Positions 205 to 40,733 of a stretch of 40,733 nt of DNA are shown piece after piece. Below the pieces are notes generated by a model. That model was not told the DNA's origin and ran no database searches. It worked only from the letters and a program-made list of their open reading frames with translations. Origin of the DNA: a virus (taxonomy: Duplodnaviria > Heunggongvirae > Uroviricota > Caudoviricetes); IMG/VR virus record IMGVR_UViG_3300045988_138709, one strand, 5' to 3'. Within the stretch, counting starts at the first letter, position 1. Each line of letters starts with the position of its first letter. The position numbers and the translations under genes are program-made.

Positions 205-1368
205 TTACACATCATTAGTACCTTCCTTATTTTTTGACTGGGACAAATTTGGGACCGATGGGTTCAGGATCGAGTCTATTTGCCGTGCGTGTTCGGTAAG
301 GTGATTAGGTGCAAGGTGAGCATATCGACGAACCATTTCGATAGACTCCCAGCCTCCCATTTCCTGTAACACTGACAACGGGACTCCGGCTTGAACCAGC
401 CAACTTGCCCAGGTGTGTCTCAAGTCGTGAAATCTGAAATCATCAATACCAGCCCGTCTCAGCGCCGCTTTCCAGGCTGTGTTTGCGTCATACCGCATCT
501 TCCTGACTGTTGGCGCTTTCGTTCCGTCTGGTTTGGTACAGCTTTCCTTGTACACAAATACCCAACGGTGATGATTCCCGATTTGTTTTTTCAATACGCG
601 ACATGCAGTATCATTCAGCGCAACGCCAATTGCGCGGTTTGATTTACTCTCTTCCGGGTTTATCCATGCCACCCGGCGCTGCATATCTATTTGTTGCCAT
701 TCAAGGTTGATGATGTTCGAGCGTCTTAGGCCTGTTGCCAGTGCAAATTCAACAACAGACTTTAATGGCTCCGGACATTCATCAATCAGCCTTTGTGCTT
801 CATGGGGCTCCAGCCAGCGGATCCGTTTATTCTTTGGTTGGGGCACTTTAATAATTGGTGCCTTATCCAGCATTTTCCATTCACGCTCTGCGGCTCTTAG
901 TAGGGCCTTTATAAATGAAAGATGCGTAGCCTTCGTTGCAACGGACGCTGGTTTTGGCGTGTATTCTGGAACAGGTTTCCCTTTTTTTCTGCATGCTTCT
1001 GCCCTGAGTTTCCAGTTTTCCTCATGACGCCGGTTCGTCATTTTCTGCATTGCTGAATAAATTTTTGATTCAGTAATGTCTCTTAGTTGCATTCCTGCGA
1101 AATGTTGAAGCCAGAATCCGATCCGGCTTTTGTCATCGTCCAGTGATTTTTTATGTGCTTTCTCTTCAAGCCACCTGACACACGCTTCCTCGAACGTTAT
1201 ATCAGGTATTTCACCAAGTTTGCTGACCCGCCATGCTTCAGCCTTTAGCTTGTCATGGAGTTCTGTCGCCTGCCTTTTGTCCTTTGTTCCAAGAGACTGT
1301 TTAAATCTTTTACCGTTCGGCAATGTGAAACTGGCGTACCATATTTCACCTCTGCGGAAGAGTGACAT
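205..1368 (-). CDS. int: Tyrosine-type phage integrase
   Basis: 387 aa; C-terminal catalytic motifs [10 protein letters not shown]...[15 protein letters not shown]; N-terminus [14 protein letters not shown] typical of tRNA-targeting prophage integrases; adjacent to tRNA. Confidence 0.9.
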
Positions 1369-1595
1369 TTTCTTTCCTCTGTTATGCCATCACCCGCGCT
1401 CACCTGGACAGTATGCAGCGGAGACTGAAGAGCCGCAATGCAGGCTTGTCGTGTTGTGAGGTAAGGAGATTTATTCTTAGTGGGATCTTTGCGTGTTGCC
1501 TGAAGACGCCCTGTGCGTATCCAGTTAATGGCAGTCGGTCTGGATATCTTGAGAAAATGACAGGCCTCATCGAGTGTGAGGCTGTATGGCTCCAT
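1245..1595 (-). CDS. xis: Excisionase-like HTH protein (AlpA/Xis-type)
   Basis: Internal start [31 protein letters not shown] gives a short HTH typical of excisionases; its ATG overlaps the upstream stop (TAATG); 3' end overlaps int in another frame as in lambda xis/int. Exact extent uncertain. Confidence 0.55.
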
Positions 1596-1900
1596 TATTT
1601 CACCTCTTGCTGTGACATTGTTGAAAAATGGATACCAGCTCGTTGCTGCCAGACGATCCAACCGAGAGTCATATCCCATGCCATGTATTCGTTATCGCCG
1701 TTTTTTGCTCTCCGACGATCTACTAAGTCACCGAAACGCTTTTCCATGAATAATTCATAAGCTTCGCGTTCATCTGGTTCTACTTCCAGAGATAGGAGTG
1801 CGATTTCATAAGCACGGCGCTCAATATCGTCTCGCACGTCAAGGCTGCTGATACGCTCTTTAATTTCTTTAATCAGTTCTTTGTCGGTAAAAGTGGTCAT
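1595..1900 (-). CDS. Hypothetical small acidic phage protein
   Basis: 101-aa ORF, translationally coupled on both sides (1-nt stop/start overlaps). No recognisable motif. Confidence 0.5.
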   Translation of the reverse strand: MTTFTDKELIKEIKERISSLDVRDDIERRAYEIALLSLEVEPDEREAYELFMEKRFGDLVDRRRAKNGDNEYMAWDMTLGWIVWQQRAGIHFSTMSQQEVK

Positions 1901-2262
1901 TATGCTCCAGCCTCCGGTGCTTTTGGCATTACTGCCCAGTGAGTGATATTGACGTTTTCAAGGTCCCCGACCTGAAATGTCCACTGCCATTCTCCGGTTT
2001 CTTTTTGTCCCCAGGTGTACCAGAGAGAACGCCAGCCAATTAGCCAGCCTTCTCCGTTAGCATCGAATAACAAAACACTTTCATTTGCTGGTGGCAGTTC
2101 AGTTGACACTGGTATTACTTTGTTTTCCTGTGCTGCATATTTAGCTTCAAGCGCATCGAATTTACGCACCAGGTATTCAGCATCTGTTTCATTTACTTTC
2201 AGATCTCGCGGTACACATCTCCCACGAAGAAACCCTTCCATTTCGAAAACATTCATGCGCAT
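1900..2262 (-). CDS. Hypothetical phage protein
   Basis: 120-aa ORF in same-strand operon, overlaps neighbours by a few nt. No motif recognised. Confidence 0.5.
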   Translation of the reverse strand: MRMNVFEMEGFLRGRCVPRDLKVNETDAEYLVRKFDALEAKYAAQENKVIPVSTELPPANESVLLFDANGEGWLIGWRSLWYTWGQKETGEWQWTFQVGDLENVNITHWAVMPKAPEAGA

Positions 2263-2789
2263 TTGCGTAACTCCGATAACTCGTTAAAGCGTTCCATAAA
2301 CATCCCGTAGGCATGGCCCGGTGCCAGTGGAATCACGTTGAACATCTCTGTTGCCGGGATACCTTCCAGTACAGGCCAGAAAGAGCCATCATCAAGCCCG
2401 AGATCGCGGCGTTCGGTTGCCAGCATGATGAGATCGGCATATTTCACGGGCGTACTCATAACTGGAGGTAACCCGTATTTCTCACGGATTACGGCGTCTA
2501 TTTTTTCTTCCATTTGTTTATAGTCAGGAAGAAGGCGTTTCAGTGGTGCGGGAATGTCCTGGCAATACGCTTCTGTTGCATCATGCATTAACGCTTCAAA
2601 AGCAAATTCCTGCGGCACCAGCTGGCTGCAAAGAACCGCATGTTGGGCGACGCTGTAGAAGTGCGAAAGATGACCGGCAAAGCGACAGATATTTGAAAGG
2701 GAAACCGCGATATCGTTAATATCGATGTCGTCTTTATTTATCCTGTCATAATAAAAATGCTTCCCGGAAAAAGTTTTAATAAATGACAT
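2253..2789 (-). CDS. HD-domain phosphohydrolase (YfdR-like 5'-deoxynucleotidase family)
   Basis: HD signature ...SVAQHAV...ALMHDATEAY...; start moved to internal ATG (MSFIKTF...) from the longer ORF 2253..2816. Similarity to E. coli CPS-53 YfdR is from recall. Confidence 0.75.
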   Translation of the reverse strand: MSFIKTFSGKHFYYDRINKDDIDINDIAVSLSNICRFAGHLSHFYSVAQHAVLCSQLVPQEFAFEALMHDATEAYCQDIPAPLKRLLPDYKQMEEKIDAVIREKYGLPPVMSTPVKYADLIMLATERRDLGLDDGSFWPVLEGIPATEMFNVIPLAPGHAYGMFMERFNELSELRKCA

Positions 2790-2916
2790 TTTGTTCTCCA
2801 CGTATATGCGCTGCACCGCGCTGAATTCTGGTAAAAAGAATCCCTCACCATCCGGCGATTATTGAGTAAATTACGTTTCCATAAATGCCCCCGCAGGGGC
2901 ATTTGCAGTAATGAAA

Positions 2917-3741
2917 TCAGGCGGTGAAAGTACCAATAAAGGTTTCTACTTTGCTGTCCTTGAATTTCTCAACAAGCAGATCACGAAATTCGTTAGCCAT
3001 TTCTTCCTGCACCGCCTCCAGCTGAATAATGCGCAGAACCAGTACAGGACGATCGCCAGTGATAATACTGAGGCGTAATTTAAACGGACGTTCTTTCAGA
3101 CCTTCAAACGGAACGCATTTAAATTCAAATGCCACTGGCATAATGTCTTTGGTCTTCGCTTCGACAGACTCCATCAGGGAGCGTTTGCCGCTGAAGTCAT
3201 TATCTTCAAAATCAGCGGTCTGGTTTGCTTCAATCGTGATTTTACGGACAGCCGCAGCCGCTTTTGTTGCCTGAATAGCGTCACCATTAGCATCAAAGCC
3301 CACAAGATAGTCGGCCCAGTCTTCAATCCATTCTGCCAGTGACTTCTGGGAGTTACGCTCGCCGTTAACAGACAACAGAGCAGAGAACGGTGCTGTCTTT
3401 TTCAGTTTGAGTGTGGCGGTGTTATCTGCGTGACCTGGTTCATCAATAGTACCCAGGTTAAGCACACTGACGGCACGCATATTATCAGCATCGATAAAGC
3501 AGCGGGTGCCTTCATCTGCAAGATCTTTAGAATAACGGGTAAAGTCATCGATGCTGGCAGTGGAAAGCGCACCACGGAAACGGAAGCGATTTAAATTAAA
3601 TTTTTCCAGATCATGAATGCGGAAATTCTCAGGCAATGCCACAGCATCGGCACCAATCTTACTGATAATTTCATTAACACCCTGAGCAGAAATAAGGGCA
3701 TGGATTTGATTAATTGCGGTTGCGTCTAAGTTCTGAGACAT
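2917..3741 (-). CDS. DUF2303 / YfdQ-like prophage protein
   Basis: 274-aa ORF with GAGGA RBS ahead of ATG; resemblance to CPS-53 YfdQ from recall; function unknown. Confidence 0.7.
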
Positions 3742-3806
3742 AATAAGTCCTCACTATATAAAGATATTCAGTGATGAGATAAATAATCAGTTAATTAAAA
3801 ACGATA

Positions 3807-4169
3807 TTAACGACCTGCTGCGCGGAGTTTTCCGTCAGGTTCACCGGCAAGAGTCAGTAACTGTCCCTGGTCTTCCTGCAGAATAGTCAGGCGACCACCG
3901 CGATTGACATACATCGGCGTTTCGGTGGTGTCTTCTTCGGAAATTTTCCCGCGGTTAGTCGGGCGAACATATGAGAGTTTGTGTTTGATTTTCACTCGGT
4001 TCTCATCAAACGGTTCGATTTCCAGGTTGAGCGAGACCTTACCTTTGGTTTTCGTGTTCATCACACCGGAAGCGACTTCACTGAGAACTGCGCCGATTTT
4101 GGTTTCAAATACGCCGCCGTCCAGCTCCCCGATAAATGCCTGCACATCAGTACTGCGTTCGCTAGCCAT
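3807..4169 (-). CDS. YfdP-like small prophage protein
   Basis: Internal start MASERSTDVQAF... (aa 107 of ORF 3807..4487). The N-terminal extension of the long ORF runs through a hairpin-rich non-coding block and is rejected. Confidence 0.6.
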   Translation of the reverse strand: MASERSTDVQAFIGELDGGVFETKIGAVLSEVASGVMNTKTKGKVSLNLEIEPFDENRVKIKHKLSYVRPTNRGKISEEDTTETPMYVNRGGRLTILQEDQGQLLTLAGEPDGKLRAAGR

Positions 4170-4209: not shown

Positions 4210-4355
4210 GTTTCTCCACAAAACAGAGAAGAACACCTGCGGTGACTGCCGCCCGGATGGATTGGGTTATGAGCCCGTCGTCCGGTGATGCTCTTCTCTG
4301 TTTTGTAAAAAGGACGGTACCAGCCGGAAGCAAGGGTACAAGCTGGTACCGCCAA
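4210..4355. other. Structured non-coding block: nested long inverted repeats
   Basis: ~17-bp inverted repeat ACAAAACAGAGAAGAAC / GCTCTTCTCTGTTTTGT (about 4219-4235 and 4291-4307) and a perfect 9-bp stem GGTACCAGC/GCTGGTACC (about 4317-4351). Overlapping low-quality ORFs on both strands. Confidence 0.4.
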
Positions 4356-4637
4356 GACTACACACAGCATAAAGTTGTGGTGCCGGGTGCCTCCCGGTGC
4401 CTGGCGAAGGTTGCACACCAGGCGGGTGGGTATCCACAGAAGGTCGACTGTCAGCCTCAACCTTAACCCGCGTGCGCTGAGCCGCATTCACCACAACGCT
4501 AAGGATTCTCTCTGGTTGAAAATACTTAGCTGTTATGTGCCTGCTTTTAGCCACATCAGGCGAGGTGGACCTAGTTATTCCCCAACAACAAGGATTCGGT
4601 TAATCTGGTTATCCCCAACAACGCAAAAGGAAAAGAA

Positions 4638-5072
4638 ATGTCCGGTAATATCTATACGCTGTACAAATCCCACTGTGAAAATGTTGGAAAGTATCGGGGC
4701 ATTGAAATCAGTGGGGTAGTGTCATCAGTCGAAATAAGCAAAGTTGAATCAAGGGCAACATTACTTACTCTTTTGGACCTTGTCTTACATGAGCACCGGA
4801 AGAAATTCGGCACTCCCTATAATCAGTTGAATGGGAAAAAGGCTCTGGTTCACCTTATTCTGATGAAGCATCACTGGATGCCAAAACAGATTAATGAGAT
4901 GAAATTTGATGAACTTCTTCTTTCAATTCAGGATGAACTCACACTTGATAAAATAAGCGTAACCGCCCAGAAATTTTTAGATTATCGAGACTGGAGATCA
5001 CAAATTCATCACTTTGATGATTTTGACGAAAATGAATGGGATCCTAATTTGTCTGCACAATATCTAAAGTAA
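4638..5072 (+). CDS. Hypothetical protein encoded antisense to the early-left operon
   Basis: 144-aa ORF with ATG and AAAGGA RBS; AT-rich; no motif recognised. Confidence 0.5.
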   Translation: MSGNIYTLYKSHCENVGKYRGIEISGVVSSVEISKVESRATLLTLLDLVLHEHRKKFGTPYNQLNGKKALVHLILMKHHWMPKQINEMKFDELLLSIQDELTLDKISVTAQKFLDYRDWRSQIHHFDDFDENEWDPNLSAQYLK

Positions 5073-5332: not shown

Positions 5333-5409
5333 GTTGCTAACGAATCATCCTGGACTTCATATGCCCCAGGCGGCTACTTCGTGGGCGTCCTGCCTGTTCG
5401 TTGTTTCTC

Positions 5410-5446
5410 TTGGGTACATTACGTATCTCAAAGGTACATTGTCAAG
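5410..5446 (-). promoter_or_regulatory. Putative OL/pL: two GGTACATT repeats and a TTGACA -35 on the minus strand
   Basis: GGTACATT at about 5413-5420 and 5433-5440 (20-bp spacing); minus-strand TTGACA at 5445..5440; -10 is weak. Position just outside the repressor terminator matches a lambdoid pL. Confidence 0.4.
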
Positions 5447-5471
5447 TATAAAAAAACCTGCCGAAGCAGGT
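5447..5471 (-). terminator. Intrinsic terminator downstream of the repressor gene
   Basis: Minus-strand ACCTGC-TTCG-GCAGGT followed by a T7 run, immediately after the repressor stop. Confidence 0.55.
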
Positions 5472-5484
5472 TCATAAACATTGA

Positions 5485-6159
5485 TTAGGCTTTGATTTTG
5501 TATCTTCTTGGTTTTCCTGAGAAAATCACTGTACCAATTATAGAGCAATTACCGTTGATCTTAATGTAAGGCTCAGGCCAGTTTGGGTTTAACGCTTTGA
5601 GATAACGCTGTGTCCCATCTTCTATTAACCTTTTGAAGGTGGTTTCACCTGTATCGTGCATCAATGCAATAACGTCGTCACCGTGGCAGGCAGGTACTTC
5701 AGGATCGACAAAAATCATGTCTCCCGGGCGGTACTCATCAATCATTGAATCACCTATCACCCGCAAGATATAAGTCATTTCCCCACAGGGTACAGGGCAG
5801 GGATACGTTTCTGCTGTGCTCAAATCAACCTCAGAATATCCAACTTCTTTCCATGCTCCGGCCTGTACCCATGATATGACAGGGACTAATGTGATTTGTT
5901 TATTAGTGATTGAAACATCAGGTTTTTTTGTGATGTTCGTTGTCTGGTGTTCTTGATCGAGCCATCCGACAGGTAGGTCGAAACATTTTTCGATGTGTCG
6001 TGCCATGCTGTCACCGATATTTTTAGTAGCACCATCTCCCATAAACCTGCTGGTCTGGGTTGGCTCGCGATCAATCATAGTGGCAAAGGAAGAATTCCCG
6101 CCAACACCATCTCTCAGTTTTCTGGCGTTAGACCGCCGGATGTCATGGATTGTTTTCAT
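5485..6159 (-). CDS. cI: CI-like phage repressor (N-terminal HTH plus C-terminal S24 LexA-like peptidase domain)
   Basis: 224 aa; C-terminal autocleavage-domain motifs (...VISWVQAGAW..., GDSM, ...TFKRL...); divergent from the Cro-like gene; no obvious SD ahead of its ATG. Confidence 0.85.
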   Translation of the reverse strand: MKTIHDIRRSNARKLRDGVGGNSSFATMIDREPTQTSRFMGDGATKNIGDSMARHIEKCFDLPVGWLDQEHQTTNITKKPDVSITNKQITLVPVISWVQAGAWKEVGYSEVDLSTAETYPCPVPCGEMTYILRVIGDSMIDEYRPGDMIFVDPEVPACHGDDVIALMHDTGETTFKRLIEDGTQRYLKALNPNWPEPYIKINGNCSIIGTVIFSGKPRRYKIKA

Positions 6160-6169
6160 AACGAAATTA

Positions 6170-6249
6170 AAACCCTTGTACCGTTAAGGTACAAGTATCT
6201 TGAAGGTTCATTTCAATCATGTAATATGTACACCGGAGGTACATATTGT
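6170..6249. promoter_or_regulatory. OR region: two palindromic operators plus pR (TTGAAG-16-TAATAT)
   Basis: Palindromes CTTGTACC-N5-GGTACAAG (about 6175-6195) and ATATGTAC-N7-GTACATAT (about 6224-6246, overlapping the -10 at 6222-6227); -35 TTGAAG at about 6200-6205. Confidence 0.55.
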
Positions 6250-6450
6250 ATGAAAGCGTATTGGGACTCTTTAACCAAAGAACAGCAGGGCGAGTTGGCC
6301 GGAAAAGTTGGCTCAACACCTGGCTACTTACGGCTGGTTTTCAATGGCTATAAAAAAGCCAGTTTTGTGCTGGCTAAAAAACTTGAGCAATGCACGTCAG
6401 GTGCAATTACGAAATCTGACTTAAGACCGGATATCTATCCGAAAGATTAG
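6250..6450 (+). CDS. cro: Cro-like HTH regulator
   Basis: 66-aa protein from internal ATG (MKAYWDSLTKEQQGELAGKVGSTPGYLRLVFNG...) of ORF 5995..6450; sits directly behind pR/operator, divergent from the repressor. Confidence 0.7.
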   Translation: MKAYWDSLTKEQQGELAGKVGSTPGYLRLVFNGYKKASFVLAKKLEQCTSGAITKSDLRPDIYPKD

Positions 6451-12405: not shown

Positions 12406-12828
12406 TCAGCTTTGCGGATCGGCAGTTTCTGATGGTGTAATGTTACGCGCAGATGTTTCAAGTATAGATTCCCTTCCGATTGATACCAAAATTTCGATTG
12501 TTCTTGCTTTAGCCTGCATCAATGTTGATTTTATTTCAGGACTTAAGTGGTCAGATCGTAACTGCTTCTCAATCTCAGCCAAATCACGCTTGCATTTTGC
12601 TCTTTTGGCTGCGTCTTCTGGAGATTCGAAACCATGTCTCGAAATGAACCAATTCATGACGTAAGTTAAAGTTGCCGCAACACCCGGTACTAATGCGTAG
12701 GCTACAGTTCGCCACACGCTATTAGGGTCGGTTAAAATCGCGCTAACAAGAACACTTAAAATTGCTCCCCAACCACCAGTTGAAAGGGTAGCTTTTCCTG
12801 TGCTTAGACCTTTAGTTTGAGAATTCAT
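12406..12828 (-). CDS. Cassette gene 3: predicted membrane protein (two N-terminal TM helices plus charged helical tail)
   Basis: 140 aa; hydrophobic segments GGWGAILSVLVSAIL and VAYALVPGVAATLTYVMNWFI; ATG start; ATGA-coupled to cassette gene 2. Confidence 0.6.
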   Translation of the reverse strand: MNSQTKGLSTGKATLSTGGWGAILSVLVSAILTDPNSVWRTVAYALVPGVAATLTYVMNWFISRHGFESPEDAAKRAKCKRDLAEIEKQLRSDHLSPEIKSTLMQAKARTIEILVSIGRESILETSARNITPSETADPQS

Positions 12829-13094
12829 TTTCGTTTTGAATTCTCCGCAATTGCCTCATCAATGAGGGTTGTTAGCATTTTTCCCTTTTTACTTGGAACT
12901 TTTATTACTAGCGTTTTGGTCACTCCGGAATCTTCATCGTGATATCGGAATTCGAAGACTTTTGTAGGGAATAGTCGACGCCAAAGCAAGGCTGACGCTG
13001 AATAGCAAAAACGACTAAAGGCAGGGATGATCATTATCACCCCTATCCAGAAGATCAGTTGTGCTATCTGCATGTTTAGTGTCACTTTTGTCAA
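12825..13094 (-). CDS. Cassette gene 2: small single-pass membrane protein
   Basis: 89-aa ORF (possible TTG start; in-frame ATG 7 codons in); TM segment IAQLIFWIGVIMIIPAF; stop overlaps gene 3 start. Confidence 0.5.
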   Translation of the reverse strand: MTKVTLNMQIAQLIFWIGVIMIIPAFSRFCYSASALLWRRLFPTKVFEFRYHDEDSGVTKTLVIKVPSKKGKMLTTLIDEAIAENSKRK

Positions 13095-13960
13095 GCCTCA
13101 GCAGGGCGTTTTCGTTTTACTTTGGTTATAGCATACTTGGTTGTGGCATTTCGCGCAGTGAAAGTTTTTATAGTTTTTAGCTCAACAACAAACAAATCTT
13201 CTTTTGTAAAACTGATGATTCCGTTTTGAACTTGGTGTATAAACAACTGATCTTCAAAGGTAACAGCATGCTCTTCGCCTAAATAATCGATTCTCCAACC
13301 CTTTGTACCCTCGAAGTTGATCTGTACGAATCTAACATTGACTTCTTCTACAGACTCTTCTTTTTCAAGTAGTGTGCCTCTAGGCAGCGGTTTGATCTCT
13401 TCGGTTTCACTTCCTTCAAGACGAACGACTTCTTCGCCTTCATCATTCAGCACCTTAAATACTGCTCCTTGTTTGCCGTCTAATGGTGCACGAACTACAT
13501 TCACAAGGGCATCACGGACTTCTGGATCTGTTACTAACTTAGCCACTGAGTCATGGCAAACAATTTCTTCCCCTTCAAGCTCAAGAACAGATTCTTCTGT
13601 TCCTGCCCGTTTTGTTACCGAAATTACTTTCTTGCTGCCCAGTTGGCGGATTAGTGATAATGCTGGAGCTCCAATAGTAGCCCCGGCTATCCCTGTTAGG
13701 CCAATCACTTTTGCTACGTCGACGGCATGAGGAACAAGCTCCATCATCGTATAGGATACGCCGAGTGATCCCGCTTCAGCTGGATTAGTAACCATTAACT
13801 TAACGGTTTGTTGGCCGTCATTAAGTCTTTTATCAGCTGCTGATATTAAATCTGCCATCGAACCTATGGAAATGCTTAATGTTTTGGCATCAATTTTATG
13901 CTGTGCTAATTCATTATCCTCTGCATCGTAGAAGATCTGAAAAGAAGTTGTTTTAGTCAC
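13091..13960 (-). CDS. Cassette gene 1: hypothetical 289-aa protein (acidic linker, one hydrophobic segment)
   Basis: Long ORF with probable GTG start; no catalytic motif recognised; hydrophobic stretch VAKVIGLTGIAGATIGAPALSLI; stop overlaps gene 2 start. Confidence 0.6.
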   Translation of the reverse strand: MTKTTSFQIFYDAEDNELAQHKIDAKTLSISIGSMADLISAADKRLNDGQQTVKLMVTNPAEAGSLGVSYTMMELVPHAVDVAKVIGLTGIAGATIGAPALSLIRQLGSKKVISVTKRAGTEESVLELEGEEIVCHDSVAKLVTDPEVRDALVNVVRAPLDGKQGAVFKVLNDEGEEVVRLEGSETEEIKPLPRGTLLEKEESVEEVNVRFVQINFEGTKGWRIDYLGEEHAVTFEDQLFIHQVQNGIISFTKEDLFVVELKTIKTFTARNATTKYAITKVKRKRPAEA

Positions 13961-14574: not shown

Positions 14575-15627
14575 ATGAAAAATACTGTAAAAATAAACAG
14601 TGTTGATTTAATCAACGCTGATTGCCTGCATTTTATTCAGTCCCTGCCTGATGACTCCATTGATCTGATTGTTACCGATCCGCCGTACTTCAAAGTGAAG
14701 CCCAACGGCTGGGACAATCAGTGGAAAGGGGACGAAGATTACCTGAAGTGGCTGGACCACTGTCTGGCCCAGTTCTGGCGGGTACTGAAACCAGCCGGAA
14801 GCCTTTACCTGTTCTGTGGACATCGCCTGGCATCTGATATCGAGATCATGATGCGTGAACGTTTCAACGTTCTTAACCATATCATCTGGGCGAAGCCGTC
14901 CGGACGATGGAACGGGTGTAATAAAGAAAGCCTGCGGGCATATTTCCCCGCTACAGAGCGCGTTCTGTTTGCTGAACATTACCAGGGGCCATATCGCGGC
15001 AAAAGTGACGATTATGCGGCAAAAGAAAGGGAACTCAAACAGCACATAATGGCACCGCTGATTTCGTATTTCAGGGATGCTCGTGCCGAACTGGGTATAA
15101 CGGCAAAACAGATTGCCGAAGCCACTGGTAAGAAAAATATGGTTTCCCACTGGTTTGGTGCCAGTCAGTGGCAGTTGCCGAATGAGGCTGACTACCGGAA
15201 GTTGCAGGCACTGTTTTCCCGTATAGCGGCAGATAAATTTCAGGAACAACAACTGGAACAACCACACCACCAGCTGGTGGCATCTTATGATTCACTGAAT
15301 CGCAAATATTCTGAATTGCTGGATGAGTTTAAAACTCTCCGGCGCTATTTCTCCGTATCAGTTTCCGTGCCTTATACCGACGTCTGGACGCATAAACCCG
15401 TTCAGTTCTACCCGGGTAAACATCCGTGTGAGAAGCCTGCGGATATGCTCCGGCAAATAATCAGTGCCAGTAGTCGACAAGGCGATCTGGTTGCTGATTT
15501 CTTTATGGGATCCGGTTCCACAATAAAAGCGGCAATGGCGCTGGGGCGTCGGGCGTTAGGTGTTGAACTTGAGTCAGAGCGGTTTAATCAGACGGTGAAA
15601 GAGGTAAGTGAACTGGTGGGGAAATAA
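14575..15627 (+). CDS. DNA methyltransferase (N6-adenine/N4-cytosine class; DPPY then FxGSGS order)
   Basis: 350 aa; N-terminal ...LIVTDPPYF... and C-terminal ...DFFMGSGST...; no adjacent restriction endonuclease seen. Confidence 0.85.
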   Translation: MKNTVKINSVDLINADCLHFIQSLPDDSIDLIVTDPPYFKVKPNGWDNQWKGDEDYLKWLDHCLAQFWRVLKPAGSLYLFCGHRLASDIEIMMRERFNVLNHIIWAKPSGRWNGCNKESLRAYFPATERVLFAEHYQGPYRGKSDDYAAKERELKQHIMAPLISYFRDARAELGITAKQIAEATGKKNMVSHWFGASQWQLPNEADYRKLQALFSRIAADKFQEQQLEQPHHQLVASYDSLNRKYSELLDEFKTLRRYFSVSVSVPYTDVWTHKPVQFYPGKHPCEKPADMLRQIISASSRQGDLVADFFMGSGSTIKAAMALGRRALGVELESERFNQTVKEVSELVGK

Positions 15628-17454: not shown

Positions 17455-17517
17455 AGGGGCGGGTCAAATCCCTGTGGCCTGACGTCTTCCGGACTGCCCG
17501 CCCCATCGTTTTTTTAT
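17455..17517 (+). other. GC-rich stem-loop plus T-run between HNH and terS: terminator and/or cos region
   Basis: GGGGCGGG ... GCCCGCCCC arms around a ~32-nt loop, followed by TTTTTTT. Location matches where HNH-type cos phages carry cos (recall). Confidence 0.35.
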
Positions 17518-35595: not shown

Positions 35596-36169
35596 CATTC
35601 GGCGCGGTGCTGGTATCTGTTGCCGTCACCGCGTCAATGTAATCCAGCACAGCGTTAAGCTGGGTTGTTTCTGCCTGCGTCAGTTTCCGTCCGGCCTGTA
35701 ATTTCAGCTGAATCAGACTGATGGAAGCCATTGCAGCATCAATCAGTGACTGGCGCTGTGCTTCTGCCGCGTCTACTGCGGCGCTATGCTGTGCCTCAGT
35801 ATCGGTTACCCATTTCTCACCATCCCATTTATCGTATGGAGATAAAGGGGCGATAGTGGTTGTATTTTCAGGGTAATCACCCGGAGCTTTGATTTCTTTT
35901 GATTCTCCTGTTTCTGTGCTAAAGACGATTTCACCACGATGGTCTGGCACATATTCCCATGAGTTAAAATCTGCAGAACGGCAAATTGCATACCCAGTTT
36001 TGTATGAGCCAGGAGCATCTAAACAGGAACATGCCGGAATGCCGACACCCACAGCAAGATATTCAGTTGATGTGAAAATATATTCCCGTGTTTCACCATC
36101 ATAGTTATAAACCGTAATATTTCCTGCCTGGGTGGCGATAAATTCGTTATTTAATACAGCGTAATCCAT
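35567..36169 (-). CDS. Alternative tail fibre assembly protein (silent orientation)
   Basis: 200 aa; C-terminal ...LDYIDAVTATDTSTAPNVIWPELP... paralogous to the + strand chaperone. Confidence 0.75.
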   Translation of the reverse strand: MDYAVLNNEFIATQAGNITVYNYDGETREYIFTSTEYLAVGVGIPACSCLDAPGSYKTGYAICRSADFNSWEYVPDHRGEIVFSTETGESKEIKAPGDYPENTTTIAPLSPYDKWDGEKWVTDTEAQHSAAVDAAEAQRQSLIDAAMASISLIQLKLQAGRKLTQAETTQLNAVLDYIDAVTATDTSTAPNVIWPELPEA

Positions 36170-36670
36170 TATGCAGCCCTCATGATATACGCAAATGCCA
36201 GGTTCCGTGGTCTGGTTTCTTTAATTAAAGAGGAGGCATCAGGTGAACTCACTGATTCAGCACCATTTCTTCCACCAGTGGTATAAGTAAAAACTCTTTC
36301 ACTGTTAGACCAGTAATCCACACCAACTGTTTTTGCTGATGAAAAAATGGTTTCATCAGATATAACCTGTTCTATTCCATACGGGATATTAGTAACTGAC
36401 CCCACTTTTGTAGGTATTCCATGATTATGAGAAATTACTGCATGCTCTTGATTCGTTAATAAAGTACGACCGCTATCCACTCCACGCCCGTCATCCCAGC
36501 CACGAATAAACTCACCACGTAAATCAGGCAATTTATTTGTCGGATAAGCCTTTGCCAGTTCCGGGTATTCTTCAGCAGAAAAAGCGGCACCGTTGCATTT
36601 CAGCCAGCCTGTTGGCGGAGTGGCGGAAGGCCACGGAACAGGCACGCCAACGGGTAATGCCGAACCTTCT
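36169..36670 (-). CDS. Alternative tail fibre variable C-terminal segment (promoterless; expressed only after inversion)
   Basis: Reading frame passes in-frame through the right crossover site (...INVGLGEGS...), matching ...ENLGLGE... at the left site; ORF 36169..36720 trimmed to the site. Confidence 0.65.
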
Positions 36671-36692
36671 CCCAAACCAACGTTTATGAAAA
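36667..36692. repeat. Right crossover site of the invertible segment
   Basis: TTCTCCCAAACCAACGTTTATGAAAA, in inverted orientation relative to the left site, about 55 bp upstream of the invertase start. Confidence 0.65.
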
Positions 36693-36746
36693 TGCAGAAA
36701 TAACGAGCAAATGGCATCATTCCTGCTTTTGTCAGGGAGATCCACC

Positions 36747-37301
36747 ATGCTTATTGGCTATGTACGCGTATCAACAAATGACCAGAACACCGATCTACAA
36801 CGTAATGCGTTGAACTGTGTAGGATGTGGGCTGATTTTTGAAGACAAGATAAGCGGTACGAAGTCCGAAAGGCCCGGACTGAAAAAACTGCTCAGGACAT
36901 TATCGGCAGGTGACACTCTGGTTGTCTGGAAGCTGGACAGGTTAGGGCGCAGTATGCGGCATCTTGTTACGCTGATAGAAGAGTTGCGCCAGCGTGGCGT
37001 GAATTTCCGAAGCCTGACTGACAGTATTGATACCAGTACCCCAATGGGCCGTTTCTTTTTTCATGTCATGGGTGCCCTAGCTGAAATGGAACGAGAACTG
37101 ATTGTTGAACGAACAAAAGCTGGACTGGAAGCTGCTCGCGCACAGGGACGAATTGGTGGACGTCGTCCCAAACTTACACCAGAACAATGGGCGCAGGCCG
37201 GGCGATTAATTGCATCAGGCGTTCCTCGCCAGAAGGTGGCGATCATCTATGATGTTGGTATATCGACACTGTATAAGAAGTTTCCGGTCGGAGATAAATG
37301 A
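36747..37301 (+). CDS. pin: Site-specific DNA invertase (serine recombinase, Pin/Gin/Hin family)
   Basis: Start MLIGYVRVSTNDQ (catalytic Ser in the canonical N-terminal motif), GGGAGA RBS; C-terminal HTH; adjacent to the crossover site. Confidence 0.9.
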   Translation: MLIGYVRVSTNDQNTDLQRNALNCVGCGLIFEDKISGTKSERPGLKKLLRTLSAGDTLVVWKLDRLGRSMRHLVTLIEELRQRGVNFRSLTDSIDTSTPMGRFFFHVMGALAEMERELIVERTKAGLEAARAQGRIGGRRPKLTPEQWAQAGRLIASGVPRQKVAIIYDVGISTLYKKFPVGDK

Positions 37302-37361: not shown

Positions 37362-38231
<870 letters not shown>

Positions 38232-39528: not shown

Positions 39529-40446
39529 TCATGGTTTGTTGCTAATATCTCTACAGTCAGGACAAATGTTAGTCCCCTCCCCAAGCCAAGAACTCATTTC
39601 CTCTTCAGGCCATTCAGCACCACAAACATCACATGTGACTTCAATTGAGCCTGAGTCTTCGGCACCGCAATACGTACAACGATATCCTGAAGTAGAATCG
39701 TTATTTTGAATCATTGTCTCATGACCACAGTAATCGCAGATATATTCTTTCCAATTAACTAACTCAAAAAACTTTGGTCTAACCCCAAGAAATGCTGCTT
39801 TTCTAGCATCAGCTACATCAAGATAACCTTCATGAACATTATGCTCATATTCGTCAGAAAGTATATTATAGGAATTAGATATTTCCTTAGAAACTTCTTT
39901 ATCTAGATCGTATAAACCAAATATATCAGAGAACTCAGCCAACCCTCTGACCAAACGCCCCATTGCCAGACGAACATGTTTAATAGTAAACGAGAATTCG
40001 TAATGCTCAATTGAATTTCTAAGATCTTTCATCCAAGCGATATCATCTAGTAACTCTTTATCAACTAAGTCCACAGAGGTTATGCTACACTTTTCATGTG
40101 TAGCTATCGATATTGCTTGATCCAAAGTAATAGTATGAGGATTTTTATGTCCTTTAATAAGTTCTTCAAAGTCGAATTCTTCAGCCTCCATTTTATAAAA
40201 AGCTTCAATAAGATTGACTTTGTCACTTTTGGCACGCTCTATTACTGCTCTGTAGCATTTTGAAAAAATCAAGTTTTCGTCTAATGTTTGAATATACATT
40301 TTCAACGTCAATTCAAAACAATGAGACAAATGTAGTATAGCAAACTTGAAAGCTTTATAATCTCCATTTTCTCCTTGCTGGAATTTTTTGATGGCTTCAT
40401 TAAAACTATCTAAAGCATTGGATTTTAGATCAAGTTTAAATTCCAT
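39529..40446 (-). CDS. HEPN-motif protein with C-terminal multi-CxxC zinc ribbon (candidate RNase-type abortive-infection effector)
   Basis: Alpha-helical N-terminal region containing R-x4-H (DLRNSIEHYEF); C-terminus CDYCGH...CTYCG...CDVCG...CPDC; start set to in-frame ATG (MEFKLDLK...), ORF track starts 3 codons upstream at GTG; AT-rich. Confidence 0.6.
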   Translation of the reverse strand: MEFKLDLKSNALDSFNEAIKKFQQGENGDYKAFKFAILHLSHCFELTLKMYIQTLDENLIFSKCYRAVIERAKSDKVNLIEAFYKMEAEEFDFEELIKGHKNPHTITLDQAISIATHEKCSITSVDLVDKELLDDIAWMKDLRNSIEHYEFSFTIKHVRLAMGRLVRGLAEFSDIFGLYDLDKEVSKEISNSYNILSDEYEHNVHEGYLDVADARKAAFLGVRPKFFELVNWKEYICDYCGHETMIQNNDSTSGYRCTYCGAEDSGSIEVTCDVCGAEWPEEEMSSWLGEGTNICPDCRDISNKP

Positions 40447-40733
40447 TGTTTTCACTTACTTTACTTGAATGGTAGAATATTTTTACATAATTAAGAACGC
40501 TGCGCTATAGCATCGGAGGTACTAACTTCCGCTCCTCGCTCATAACAGACATAAACTTCAGTTATGGCATAAAGGTATGCATGCTGGGTGGGGAAAGTAT
40601 GAAGGAAAAGAAGACTGCTGCGCCGTTTGTCGTCACGTTTATCTTCATTGGCTATGCAAGTCGTAATACAAGGTGGGACAAAACTGAGACACATAAGGCC
40701 TCGCAATGGCTTGCAAGGCTTTACATGTTTTGA

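Follow-up and report, generated by a model that had tools for sequence, protein, structure and literature searches.

The yfdP-yfdQ-yfdR genes in the early-left arm of an SfV-like prophage: a near-invariant gene pair and a facultative gene for a predicted HD-domain 5'-deoxynucleotidase

When genes without any evident relation to recombination occupy the slot where phage lambda carries its recombination genes, the obvious question is what they do there: replace the missing recombination functions, remodel nucleotide pools, or act upon the host in some other way? This question is raised by positions 2253-4169 of the window, by which we mean the whole 40,733-nt stretch of Caudoviricetes DNA analysed here (IMG/VR record IMGVR_UViG_3300045988_138709). 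The initial annotation placed at this locus three co-directional genes, and three minus-strand open reading frames with exactly these limits are indeed present, all of them real genes. The features on which the argument depends are as follows.

2253..2789, minus strand: yfdR (SfV orf30), 178 aa, predicted HD-domain 5'-deoxynucleotidase, 98% identical to K-12 YfdR
2917..3741, minus strand: yfdQ (SfV orf31), 274 aa, DUF2303 (PF10065)
3807..4169, minus strand: yfdP (SfV orf32), 120 aa, phrog_204, 98% identical to K-12 YfdP
1900..2262, minus strand: yfdS-like DUF551 gene, with its start in a 10-nt overlap with the end of yfdR
1595..1900, minus strand: yfdT, so annotated by RefSeq in a 99.9% identical locus; identical to SfV orf28
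1245..1679, minus strand: excisionase-like HTH_17 gene
205..1368, minus strand: tyrosine integrase, adjoining tRNA-Thr
115-190: tRNA-Thr
5416..5445, minus strand: candidate pL (TTGACA, 18 nt, TAATGT), by our reading of the sequence
5403-5440: two ATGTACC operator-like repeats overlapping the candidate pL
5485..6159, minus strand: CI-like S24 (LexA-family) repressor (Pfam Peptidase_S24, E=1.5e-26)
5454-5473: terminator, upstream of the three genes
6217-6253: palindrome with an ATGTAC motif, between the repressor and cro genes

The three genes are yfdP, yfdQ and yfdR of the SfV/CPS-53-type prophages of E. coli, which have been described before; the observation is real but ordinary, the genes being already known. 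The encoded proteins show 98% (YfdR), 99% (YfdQ) and 98% (YfdP) identity to their K-12 counterparts, and the RefSeq annotation of a 99.9% identical DNA assigns the same gene names. Most codon differences from K-12 leave the amino acid unchanged (6 synonymous vs 2 amino-acid changes in yfdP, 10 vs 2 in yfdQ, 16 vs 4 in yfdR), and homologues with 40-75% identity are found in some 80 other species; together, these data indicate that we are dealing with genes and not with chance reading frames. The yfdP-yfdQ-yfdR genes are found in approximately one in two complete E. coli genomes. The two partners of the HD gene, initially presented as proteins of unknown function, are indeed without an assigned biochemical function, but both are named genes with a literature of their own.

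The window itself is an SfV-like prophage at tRNA-Thr that is apparently complete, with repressor, cro, head, tail and lysis genes. The arrangement is best explained by considering yfdP-yfdQ-yfdR the first conserved block of the early-left operon, followed by yfdS, yfdT, xis and int. That the slot of the lambda recombination genes is occupied is borne out by the block, which lies in the early-left arm with the CI-like repressor on one side and xis/int on the other. The three genes lie downstream of this repressor, of the terminator and of the TTGACA promoter candidate with its operator-like repeats; the palindrome between the repressor and cro genes shares its ATGTAC motif with these repeats, and in 39 related loci an S24 repressor is encoded no more than three genes upstream of yfdP. 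A consensus promoter scan upstream of yfdP yielded nothing convincing, and the candidate pL was absent from its list. From this layout, we infer that the block would be expressed from the candidate pL on derepression. The overlaps of yfdR with yfdS, and of yfdS with yfdT, suggest that these three genes may be translationally coupled. Hairpins that might attenuate transcription are located at 4218-4306 and 2887-2900.

The gene starts deserve a brief comment. The longest yfdR reading frame begins with GTG at 2816, but the ATG at 2789, with GGAG 6 nt upstream, is preferred, and yfdR encodes 178 aa in the K-12, SfV and RefSeq annotations alike; the GTG start was therefore rejected. Similarly, a 226-aa extended yfdP, in a frame open to 4487, is ruled out by the GAGGAG that precedes the ATG at 4169 and by the homology to K-12, which begins only about 20 nt upstream of this ATG.

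Do the three genes form a natural unit, as the term "trio" used in the initial annotation would imply? They do not, and this is the new result of the present analysis. Among 83 diverse loci, supplied by a scan of genome_contigs with a YfdQ alignment, yfdP is located directly upstream of yfdQ in 82, whereas the HD gene comes next after the pair in 57, and the remaining 26 contain the pair without any HD gene. Thus, the function of yfdP-yfdQ cannot depend on YfdR. The HD gene, in turn, has a distribution among phages that differs from that of yfdPQ, and the gene set studied experimentally extends into yfdS and yfdT. The same alignment run against viral_contigs recovered only 99-100% identical copies, and that scan was uninformative.

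YfdQ matches PF10065 (DUF2303) over residues 7-272 of 274 (E=2e-92) and phrog_210 (E=2.6e-120), and YfdP matches phrog_204 (E=1.2e-49); all the YfdP homologues listed bear the precomputed label PF27127, a model that the local Pfam copy does not include. Although one phage record calls both proteins DUF2303, a common ancestry of YfdQ and YfdP was rejected (profile-profile probability 0.3%). AlphaFold2 models of YfdQ (pLDDT 77) and YfdP (pLDDT 70) gave no Foldseek match in the PDB at E<=0.001, and against BFVD the YfdQ model retrieved solely uncharacterised DUF2303 proteins (E down to 6e-14). At the level of sequence profiles, YfdP had no match in the PDB, and the YfdQ family matched a single entry, 9o7m, "YfdQ Protein" (E=1e-58), which comprises 36 YfdQ chains of the Xanthomonas/Xylella-phage type, 98.8% identical to phage MET23-P3; a search under the PDB code and the phage names found no paper on this structure. 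Invariant motifs, RxRFRG and PGHAD, are present in YfdQ, and the C-terminal tail of YfdP is invariant yet disordered. One could envisage, tentatively and with the odds somewhat against it, that YfdP and YfdQ make up an obligate two-protein early-phage machine of unseen fold and, judging from the 36 chains of 9o7m, large oligomeric size, which would target the DNA replication of the host or of the phage with no need of the HD enzyme; in that case, the pair would be what is truly conserved as the effector of this block, and YfdR an addition made in particular lineages. If so, RxRFRG, PGHAD and the YfdP tail would be functional sites.

The position of the pair invites another reading, namely that the absent Red-type functions are supplied by YfdP and YfdQ, alone or together with YfdR, as a hidden recombination or replication-accessory module. 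The Red slot is occupied, and no recombinase domain was detected in this arm: a search of all genes from the repressor to int with Pfam and PHROG found no annealing-protein or exonuclease domain. Moreover, in other phages the pair lies beside genes for SSB, RecT and exonuclease, or between a YqaJ-domain protein, a DnaQ-type exonuclease and SSB. However, TL-2011c and ArgO145 carry the pair alongside complete Gam/RecT/Exo/SSB modules, and for this reason a recombinase role was judged unlikely when the Red-slot placement was discussed in 2025 and a hidden recombination role was argued against (PMC12315714). The models of YfdQ and YfdP also speak against this possibility, as the lack of PDB matches at E<=0.001 means that no annealing-protein or nuclease fold was found. 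We regard such a replacement as very unlikely.

As to the third gene, the claim of an HD phosphohydrolase signature holds in full: H50, H69-D70, E73, D78 and D119 are all present in YfdR, and each of these residues is retained in 53-55 of 56 family members that span 40-98% identity (E73 and D78 in 54 each). The residues H69/D70/E73/D78 align with H68/D69/E72/D77 of YfbR; of the latter, E72 is reportedly the catalytic glutamate and D77 the substrate aspartate, as Zimmerman is said to have described in 2008. The further designation of a deoxynucleotidase-like enzyme is upheld by this alignment and by the matches of YfdR to phrog_318, "deoxyribonucleoside 5' monophosphate phosphatase" (E=2.7e-110), and to PDB 2gz4, Agrobacterium Atu1052 (E=3e-14). 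The Pfam YfbR-like model scores just below its threshold (25.0 bits, cut-off 25.9, E=1.7e-5), and the NCBIfam YfbR equivalog model scores 20.5 against a cut-off of 122, which indicates that YfdR is not a YfbR equivalog. The protein is 100% identical to that of phage SfIV. The K-12 RefSeq product name is likewise 5'-deoxynucleotidase, and K-12 YfdR is described as an enzyme with this activity, with a substrate affinity much below that of YfbR (Zimmerman 2008, as cited in PMC4776307).

The orthologues have a second known property. YfdR binds domain I of DnaA in a Phe46-dependent manner, a result reproduced with purified protein, and inhibits the binding of DiaA and of DnaB to DnaA (PMC4776307). 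Multicopy yfdQ and yfdR together with either yfdS or yfdT inhibit initiation at oriC in vivo, yfdP not being required, and extracts oversupplied with YfdQRST inhibit initiation in vitro (PMC4776307); a review agrees on DnaA binding and inhibition of initiation (PMC5448010). Deletion of yfdQRST was without effect, and the authors concede a possible overexpression artefact (PMC4776307). Only multicopy plasmids gave this inhibition, a point against assigning it to the phage life cycle. By extension from this literature on 98-99% identical orthologues, the proteins of the window would have the same enzymatic activity, bind DnaA and inhibit initiation.

Could YfdR then be a matter of nucleotide housekeeping only, that is, a dNMP phosphatase tuning deoxynucleotide turnover while phage DNA is being synthesised, with DnaA binding an artefact and YfdP and YfdQ unrelated neighbours? 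The strict conservation of the active site in the 56 relatives and the distribution of the HD gene independently of yfdPQ agree with this possibility, as does the artefact of overexpression raised by the authors of the DnaA study themselves. Nevertheless, the binding of DnaA is specific, in that it depends on Phe46 and is reproduced with purified protein, and genetic suppression required both yfdQ and yfdR (PMC4776307). Furthermore, deletion of yfdR in K-12 left the CMP yield of an engineered strain unchanged, which argues against a large metabolic flux via YfdR, at least when the prophage is silent. On balance, housekeeping alone appears unlikely.

The most likely role of yfdPQR in this SfV/CPS-53-type temperate phage is, in our opinion, probably host takeover at induction, a view that we hold with moderate confidence. 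YfdR, an apparently intact HD-domain 5'-deoxynucleotidase with an activity reported for the 98% identical K-12 protein, would bind domain I of DnaA at Phe46 in competition with DiaA and DnaB, and strong co-expression of YfdR, YfdQ and either YfdS or YfdT would restrain initiation at the host oriC. A separate module would be formed by YfdP and YfdQ, an obligate pair to which the HD gene has been added in enterobacterial phages. What is observed here is the identity of the genes, the conservation of the active site, the linkage pattern and the location within the prophage, and the collinearity of the block with SfV orf32-orf28, xis and int is a point in favour; we infer that inhibition of initiation is the natural role of the genes. 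Many lytic and jumbo phages also encode members of the YfdR HD family, their hosts including Bacillus, Caulobacter and Rhizobium, so that a role involving E. coli DnaA cannot be the conserved function there.

This broad distribution bears on one more possibility, that of counter-defence, raised in the initial annotation, in which YfdR, produced early, would cleave dNMPs or a signalling nucleotide and thereby starve or silence a nucleotide-based defence. The wide occurrence of the family in virulent phages fits a general infection-stage role, and there is a precedent: Dmp of T5, a first-expressed 5'-deoxynucleotidase with which YfdR shares the class of activity and, given its place in the operon, the early position, blocks Kongming immunity by removing dAMP (bioRxiv 10.1101/2024.12.20.629578). 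However, it is phage dNMP kinases that set off Kongming, and Dmp is encoded mainly by phages with a kinase of this kind (bioRxiv 10.1101/2024.12.20.629578), whereas the closest relatives of this prophage that are annotated list no dNMP kinase; the low nucleotide affinity reported for YfdR (PMC4776307) also argues against such a role. Homology of the two proteins was ruled out, as the best BLASTP alignment has E=3.5 and Dmp gives no HD domain hit. A PADLOC search at E<=0.01 gave no match for YfdP, YfdQ, YfdR, YfdS, YfdT or two neighbouring genes, but PADLOC lists defence and not anti-defence families, so that this null result says little on counter-defence. We consider this role distinctly improbable.

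The finding as first stated matters little, since the genes are named and common, and papers of 2008 and 2016 had already reported the enzyme and its DnaA link. The pair is a different matter: few early gene pairs without an assigned biochemical function are as widespread in Proteobacteria phages as yfdP-yfdQ, which is always paired, has a fold of its own and shows genetic links to the inhibition of replication initiation, the tolerance of H2O2 and MMS, and the control of phage SW1 production. Besides, counter-defence by phage HD-type dNMPases, as with the unrelated T5 Dmp, is now a cheaply testable question.

Comparison with known systems places the locus as follows. K-12 CPS-53 (KpLE1) contains yfdP-yfdQ-yfdR-yfdS-yfdT in the same order, each of the five genes having the same length as in the window, but there they are left over in a decayed argW prophage that has neither a repressor nor pL. 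SfV shares with the window the gene order, as do SfIV and SfII, and its DNA is about 96% identical from int as far as position 17,488 of the window; the two diverge between the repressor and yfdP, where SfV has orf33 and the window an opposite-strand ECs1072-family gene along with a stretch that RefSeq calls a pseudogene. Phages without recombination genes have the same three gene types in their early-left operon (PMC12315714), but with greater divergence, the ST64B proteins showing 68.5% (YfdR) and 59.8% (YfdP) identity to those of the window; overall, the yfdPQR cluster is neither restricted to nor universal among phages that lack a Rec module (PMC12315714).

Among enzymes, E. coli YfbR (PDB 2paq) and Agrobacterium Atu1052 (PDB 2gz4) share with YfdR the HD fold and an alignable H...HD..E....D core, but YfdR resembles YfbR only weakly (phmmer E=0.88) and Atu1052 more closely (E=3e-14), which, together with the low NCBIfam score, makes YfdR a member of a separate subfamily closer to Atu1052. 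T5 Dmp, the only documented phage dNMPase acting as counter-defence (bioRxiv 10.1101/2024.12.20.629578), resembles YfdR in reaction class and early expression and is an analogue, not a relative. Finally, lambda P and B. subtilis SirA are, like YfdR, small DnaA-binding proteins that hold back host initiation, although all are unrelated; SirA uses a residue equivalent to Phe46, whereas lambda P binds domain III of DnaA (PMC4776307).

The stretch at 2253-4169 contains three minus-strand ORFs, in agreement with the initial annotation, which had described three co-directional genes here:

3807-4169, minus strand, yfdP, 120 aa
2917-3741, minus strand, yfdQ, 274 aa
2253-2816 (ORF; likely start ATG 2789), minus strand, yfdR, 178 aa

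Since ATG 2789 has a GGAG 6 nt upstream and ATG 4169 of yfdP is preceded by GAGGAG, the longer in-frame extensions of the yfdR and yfdP ORFs fall outside the genes and were rejected. The spacing is 65 nt between yfdP and yfdQ and 127 nt between yfdQ and yfdR; yfdR overlaps yfdS by 10 nt, and yfdS overlaps yfdT by 1 nt. The observation is confirmed and its initial interpretation holds in part, but all three genes have already been named and studied. The products are 98% (YfdR), 99% (YfdQ) and 98% (YfdP) identical to those of the cryptic prophage CPS-53 of E. coli K-12, and the codon differences are mainly synonymous, which indicates that the genes are under purifying selection. In many E. coli chromosomes, RefSeq labels 99.9%-identical DNA beside proA and tRNA-Thr as yfdP, yfdQ and yfdR (5'-deoxynucleotidase); the window begins at tRNA-Thr. 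The 1.9-kb stretch is matched in 3012 of 5426 complete E. coli genomes, at up to 7 places in some, with at least 80% of it covered in 2456 of the matching genomes.

The location of the genes in the slot where lambda carries its Red genes had been correctly recognized: they lie between the CI-like repressor and xis, and no recombinase domain was found in the arm from the candidate pL to xis. Features of this region include:

5485-6159, CI-like S24 repressor
5454-5473, terminator after the repressor
5416-5445, candidate pL (TTGACA, 18 nt, TAATGT) with two overlapping ATGTACC repeats
4638-5072, plus strand, ECs1072-family phage-associated gene (NCBIfam E=1.7e-46)

The assignment of pL is our own reading of the sequence; the motif of the ATGTACC repeats recurs in a palindrome between the repressor and cro genes. 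From this candidate promoter towards xis, the order is a 73-aa ORF, the ECs1072-family gene, which opposes the early-left genes in strand and looks like an inserted moron, a stretch that RefSeq treats as a frameshifted pseudogene, and yfdP-Q-R-S-T. Within that stretch, just upstream of yfdP, there is a match, slightly short of the threshold, to the Rfam sRNA family STnc100 (4304-4527, minus strand; 43.4 bits, cut-off 47, E=3.5e-7); a second, very weak match (E=0.39) lies at 2746-2925, in the yfdQ-yfdR gap. Some 50 nt ahead of the yfdP start there is a long hairpin at 4218-4306 (25-nt arms, 84% complementary, RNA fold z-score -4.8), which might act as an attenuator or mark a processing site. 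This hairpin is missing in K-12, where the homology begins only 20 nt before yfdP. A GC hairpin (GCCCC-TGCG-GGGGC followed by ATTTAT; 2887-2900, minus strand), 16 nt past the yfdQ stop codon, may be a weak terminator dividing the yfdP-yfdQ pair from yfdR.

The trio, however, is not one unit. The comparison covered 83 loci, of which 80 came from a set with one genome per species and three from phages. In 82 of them yfdQ is immediately preceded, on its own strand, by a YfdP homologue, the lone exception being cut by a contig end; the two ORFs overlap slightly at one extreme and are 193 nt apart at the other, and only one locus has a gap of more than 67 nt. An HD gene of the YfdR type comes after yfdQ in 57 of the 83; the loci of Marinobacter, Photobacterium, Vibrio and Halomonas lack it. 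In the phage collection, YfdQ matches 184 records and YfdP 180, with almost equal taxon breakdowns, whereas YfdR matches 333, dominated by phages of Bacillus, Caulobacter, Rhizobium, Vibrio and Pseudomonas, many of them large and virulent. Taken together, these data, described as new here, show that yfdP and yfdQ form a tight pair, which was joined in enterobacterial prophages by an independently moving HD gene. A few E. coli database proteins (P0011, P0073, P0160; 96-99% identity) carry the YfdP (PF27127) and YfdQ (PF10065) labels together; a deletion or frameshift has probably fused the two neighbouring genes in these cases.

An S24 repressor is found no more than three genes upstream of the pair in 39 loci. 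Other neighbours of the pair vary: in TL-2011c they are SSB, RecT, Exo and Gam, and in a Vibrio podophage they are a YqaJ-domain protein, a DnaQ-type exonuclease and SSB. Weakly DUF1351-like proteins of 377-471 aa, both with Pfam scores below the cut-off, take the place of the HD enzyme after yfdQ in Xanthomonas phage Tabio and Vibrio phage vB_VpP_1 (L169:4405-5820 and L170:4457-5590). In Vibrio phage 34E29.1, the third gene downstream of yfdP-yfdQ-ssb (locus L003, 5712-6221) has a product that carries a Tad2-like (Thoeris anti-defence 2) domain (E=4e-22).

As to YfdR, the proposed HD nucleotidase-type enzyme is upheld by a match to phrog_318, "deoxyribonucleoside 5' monophosphate phosphatase" (E=2.7e-110), and by its HD residues, although the gene itself was no novelty. 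YfdR also matches the HD protein Atu1052 (PDB 2gz4, E=3e-14) and, marginally, the Pfam YfbR-like family (25.0 bits, cut-off 25.9); as a YfbR equivalog it was rejected (NCBIfam, 20.5 bits against a cut-off of 122). H50, H69-D70, E73, D78 and D119 are retained in 53-55 of 56 relatives (40-98% identity), and H69/D70/E73/D78 align with H68/D69/E72/D77 of YfbR, so that the active site is intact. According to Zimmerman 2008, as cited in PMC4776307, YfdR is a YfbR-like enzyme whose affinity for nucleotides is much lower.

Counter-defence by YfdR acting on nucleotides, also raised initially, is possible but unsupported. There is one precedent, the 5'-deoxynucleotidase Dmp of phage T5, which defeats Kongming by removing dAMP (bioRxiv 10.1101/2024.12.20.629578), but sequence comparison rejected Dmp, an enzyme of the same type, as a homologue of YfdR. 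Besides, Dmp genes tend to co-occur with a dNMP kinase in phages (same source), and the annotations of this prophage's closest relatives list no such kinase. PADLOC, which covers defence and not anti-defence families, gave no match for these proteins.

Elsewhere in the window, 37362-38186 (minus strand) strongly matches the anti-phage defence protein PD-T4-3 (PADLOC E=1e-139) and has a LEM-3-like GIY-YIG domain; it is a defence gene carried by the prophage close to its tail-fibre end. Two minus-strand ORFs in a low-GC stretch (12406-13960, ~42% GC) oppose the surrounding genes: 13091-13960 matches the candidate defence family PDC-S42 (E=8e-33) and 12406-12828 had no match in domain and PADLOC searches. 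In the reference strain this moron slot is occupied by a KAP NTPase instead. The N-terminal 90 residues encoded by 39529-40455 (minus strand; no Pfam match) match candidate defence family PDC-S64 (E=2e-16). A Type II DNA methyltransferase gene (14575-15627, plus strand; N6_N4_Mtase E=9e-42, PADLOC MTase_II E=3e-151) has no visible restriction partner in its vicinity. A Gin/Pin-type serine invertase gene (36711-37301; Resolvase E=1.5e-51) adjoins an oppositely oriented tail-collar ORF (36169-36720), which suggests an invertible tail-fibre switch (36169-37301).

The predicted models of YfdQ (pLDDT 77) and YfdP (pLDDT 70) had no match at E<=0.001 in a PDB fold search, and profile-profile comparison detected no relationship between the two proteins. 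In the YfdP model a long helix leads into a three-stranded sheet, after which comes a tail that is disordered yet invariant. In BFVD, all matches of YfdQ are to other DUF2303 proteins, among them proteins from a Gordonia phage; its invariant residues include R52, R54-F55-R56-G57 and G103-H104-A105-D106. By sequence, the family has a single PDB match, 9o7m ("YfdQ Protein", 36 chains), of the Xanthomonas-phage type, for which our literature search found no paper.

Noguchi and Katayama (2016; PMC4776307) found yfdQ-yfdR-yfdS-yfdT as a multicopy suppressor of hda-185 over-initiation. Suppression needs yfdQ, yfdR and either yfdS or yfdT, yfdP being dispensable; YfdR binds DnaA in a Phe46-dependent manner and moderately impairs the binding of DiaA and of DnaB to DnaA, and an excess of YfdQRST in extracts blocks or lowers replication from oriC in vitro. 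Deletion of yfdQRST had no phenotype, and the authors conceded that the initiation effect could be an overexpression artefact (PMC4776307). Mild sensitivity of yfdQ deletions to H2O2 and MMS has been reported, and when YfdQ was produced in a strain carrying phage SW1, a demarcation line again separated swimming colonies and plaques were obtained. Host takeover at induction is the likeliest role: it would combine interference with DnaA and dNMP hydrolysis by YfdR, and YfdP-YfdQ would act as a separate module.

A 2025 paper in Genome Research (PMC12315714) described the same three-gene cluster. It reported the cluster from lambdoid phages without a recombination module, where it belongs to the early-left operon, as well as from phages whose Rec module is complete, and judged a hidden recombinase role unlikely. 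The Shigella phages SfV, SfIV and SfII are ~96% identical to the window from int to position 17,488; SfV has a different gene, orf33, in place of the ECs1072-family gene, followed by orf32, orf31 and orf30 (yfdP, yfdQ and yfdR), and then orf29, orf28, xis and int.
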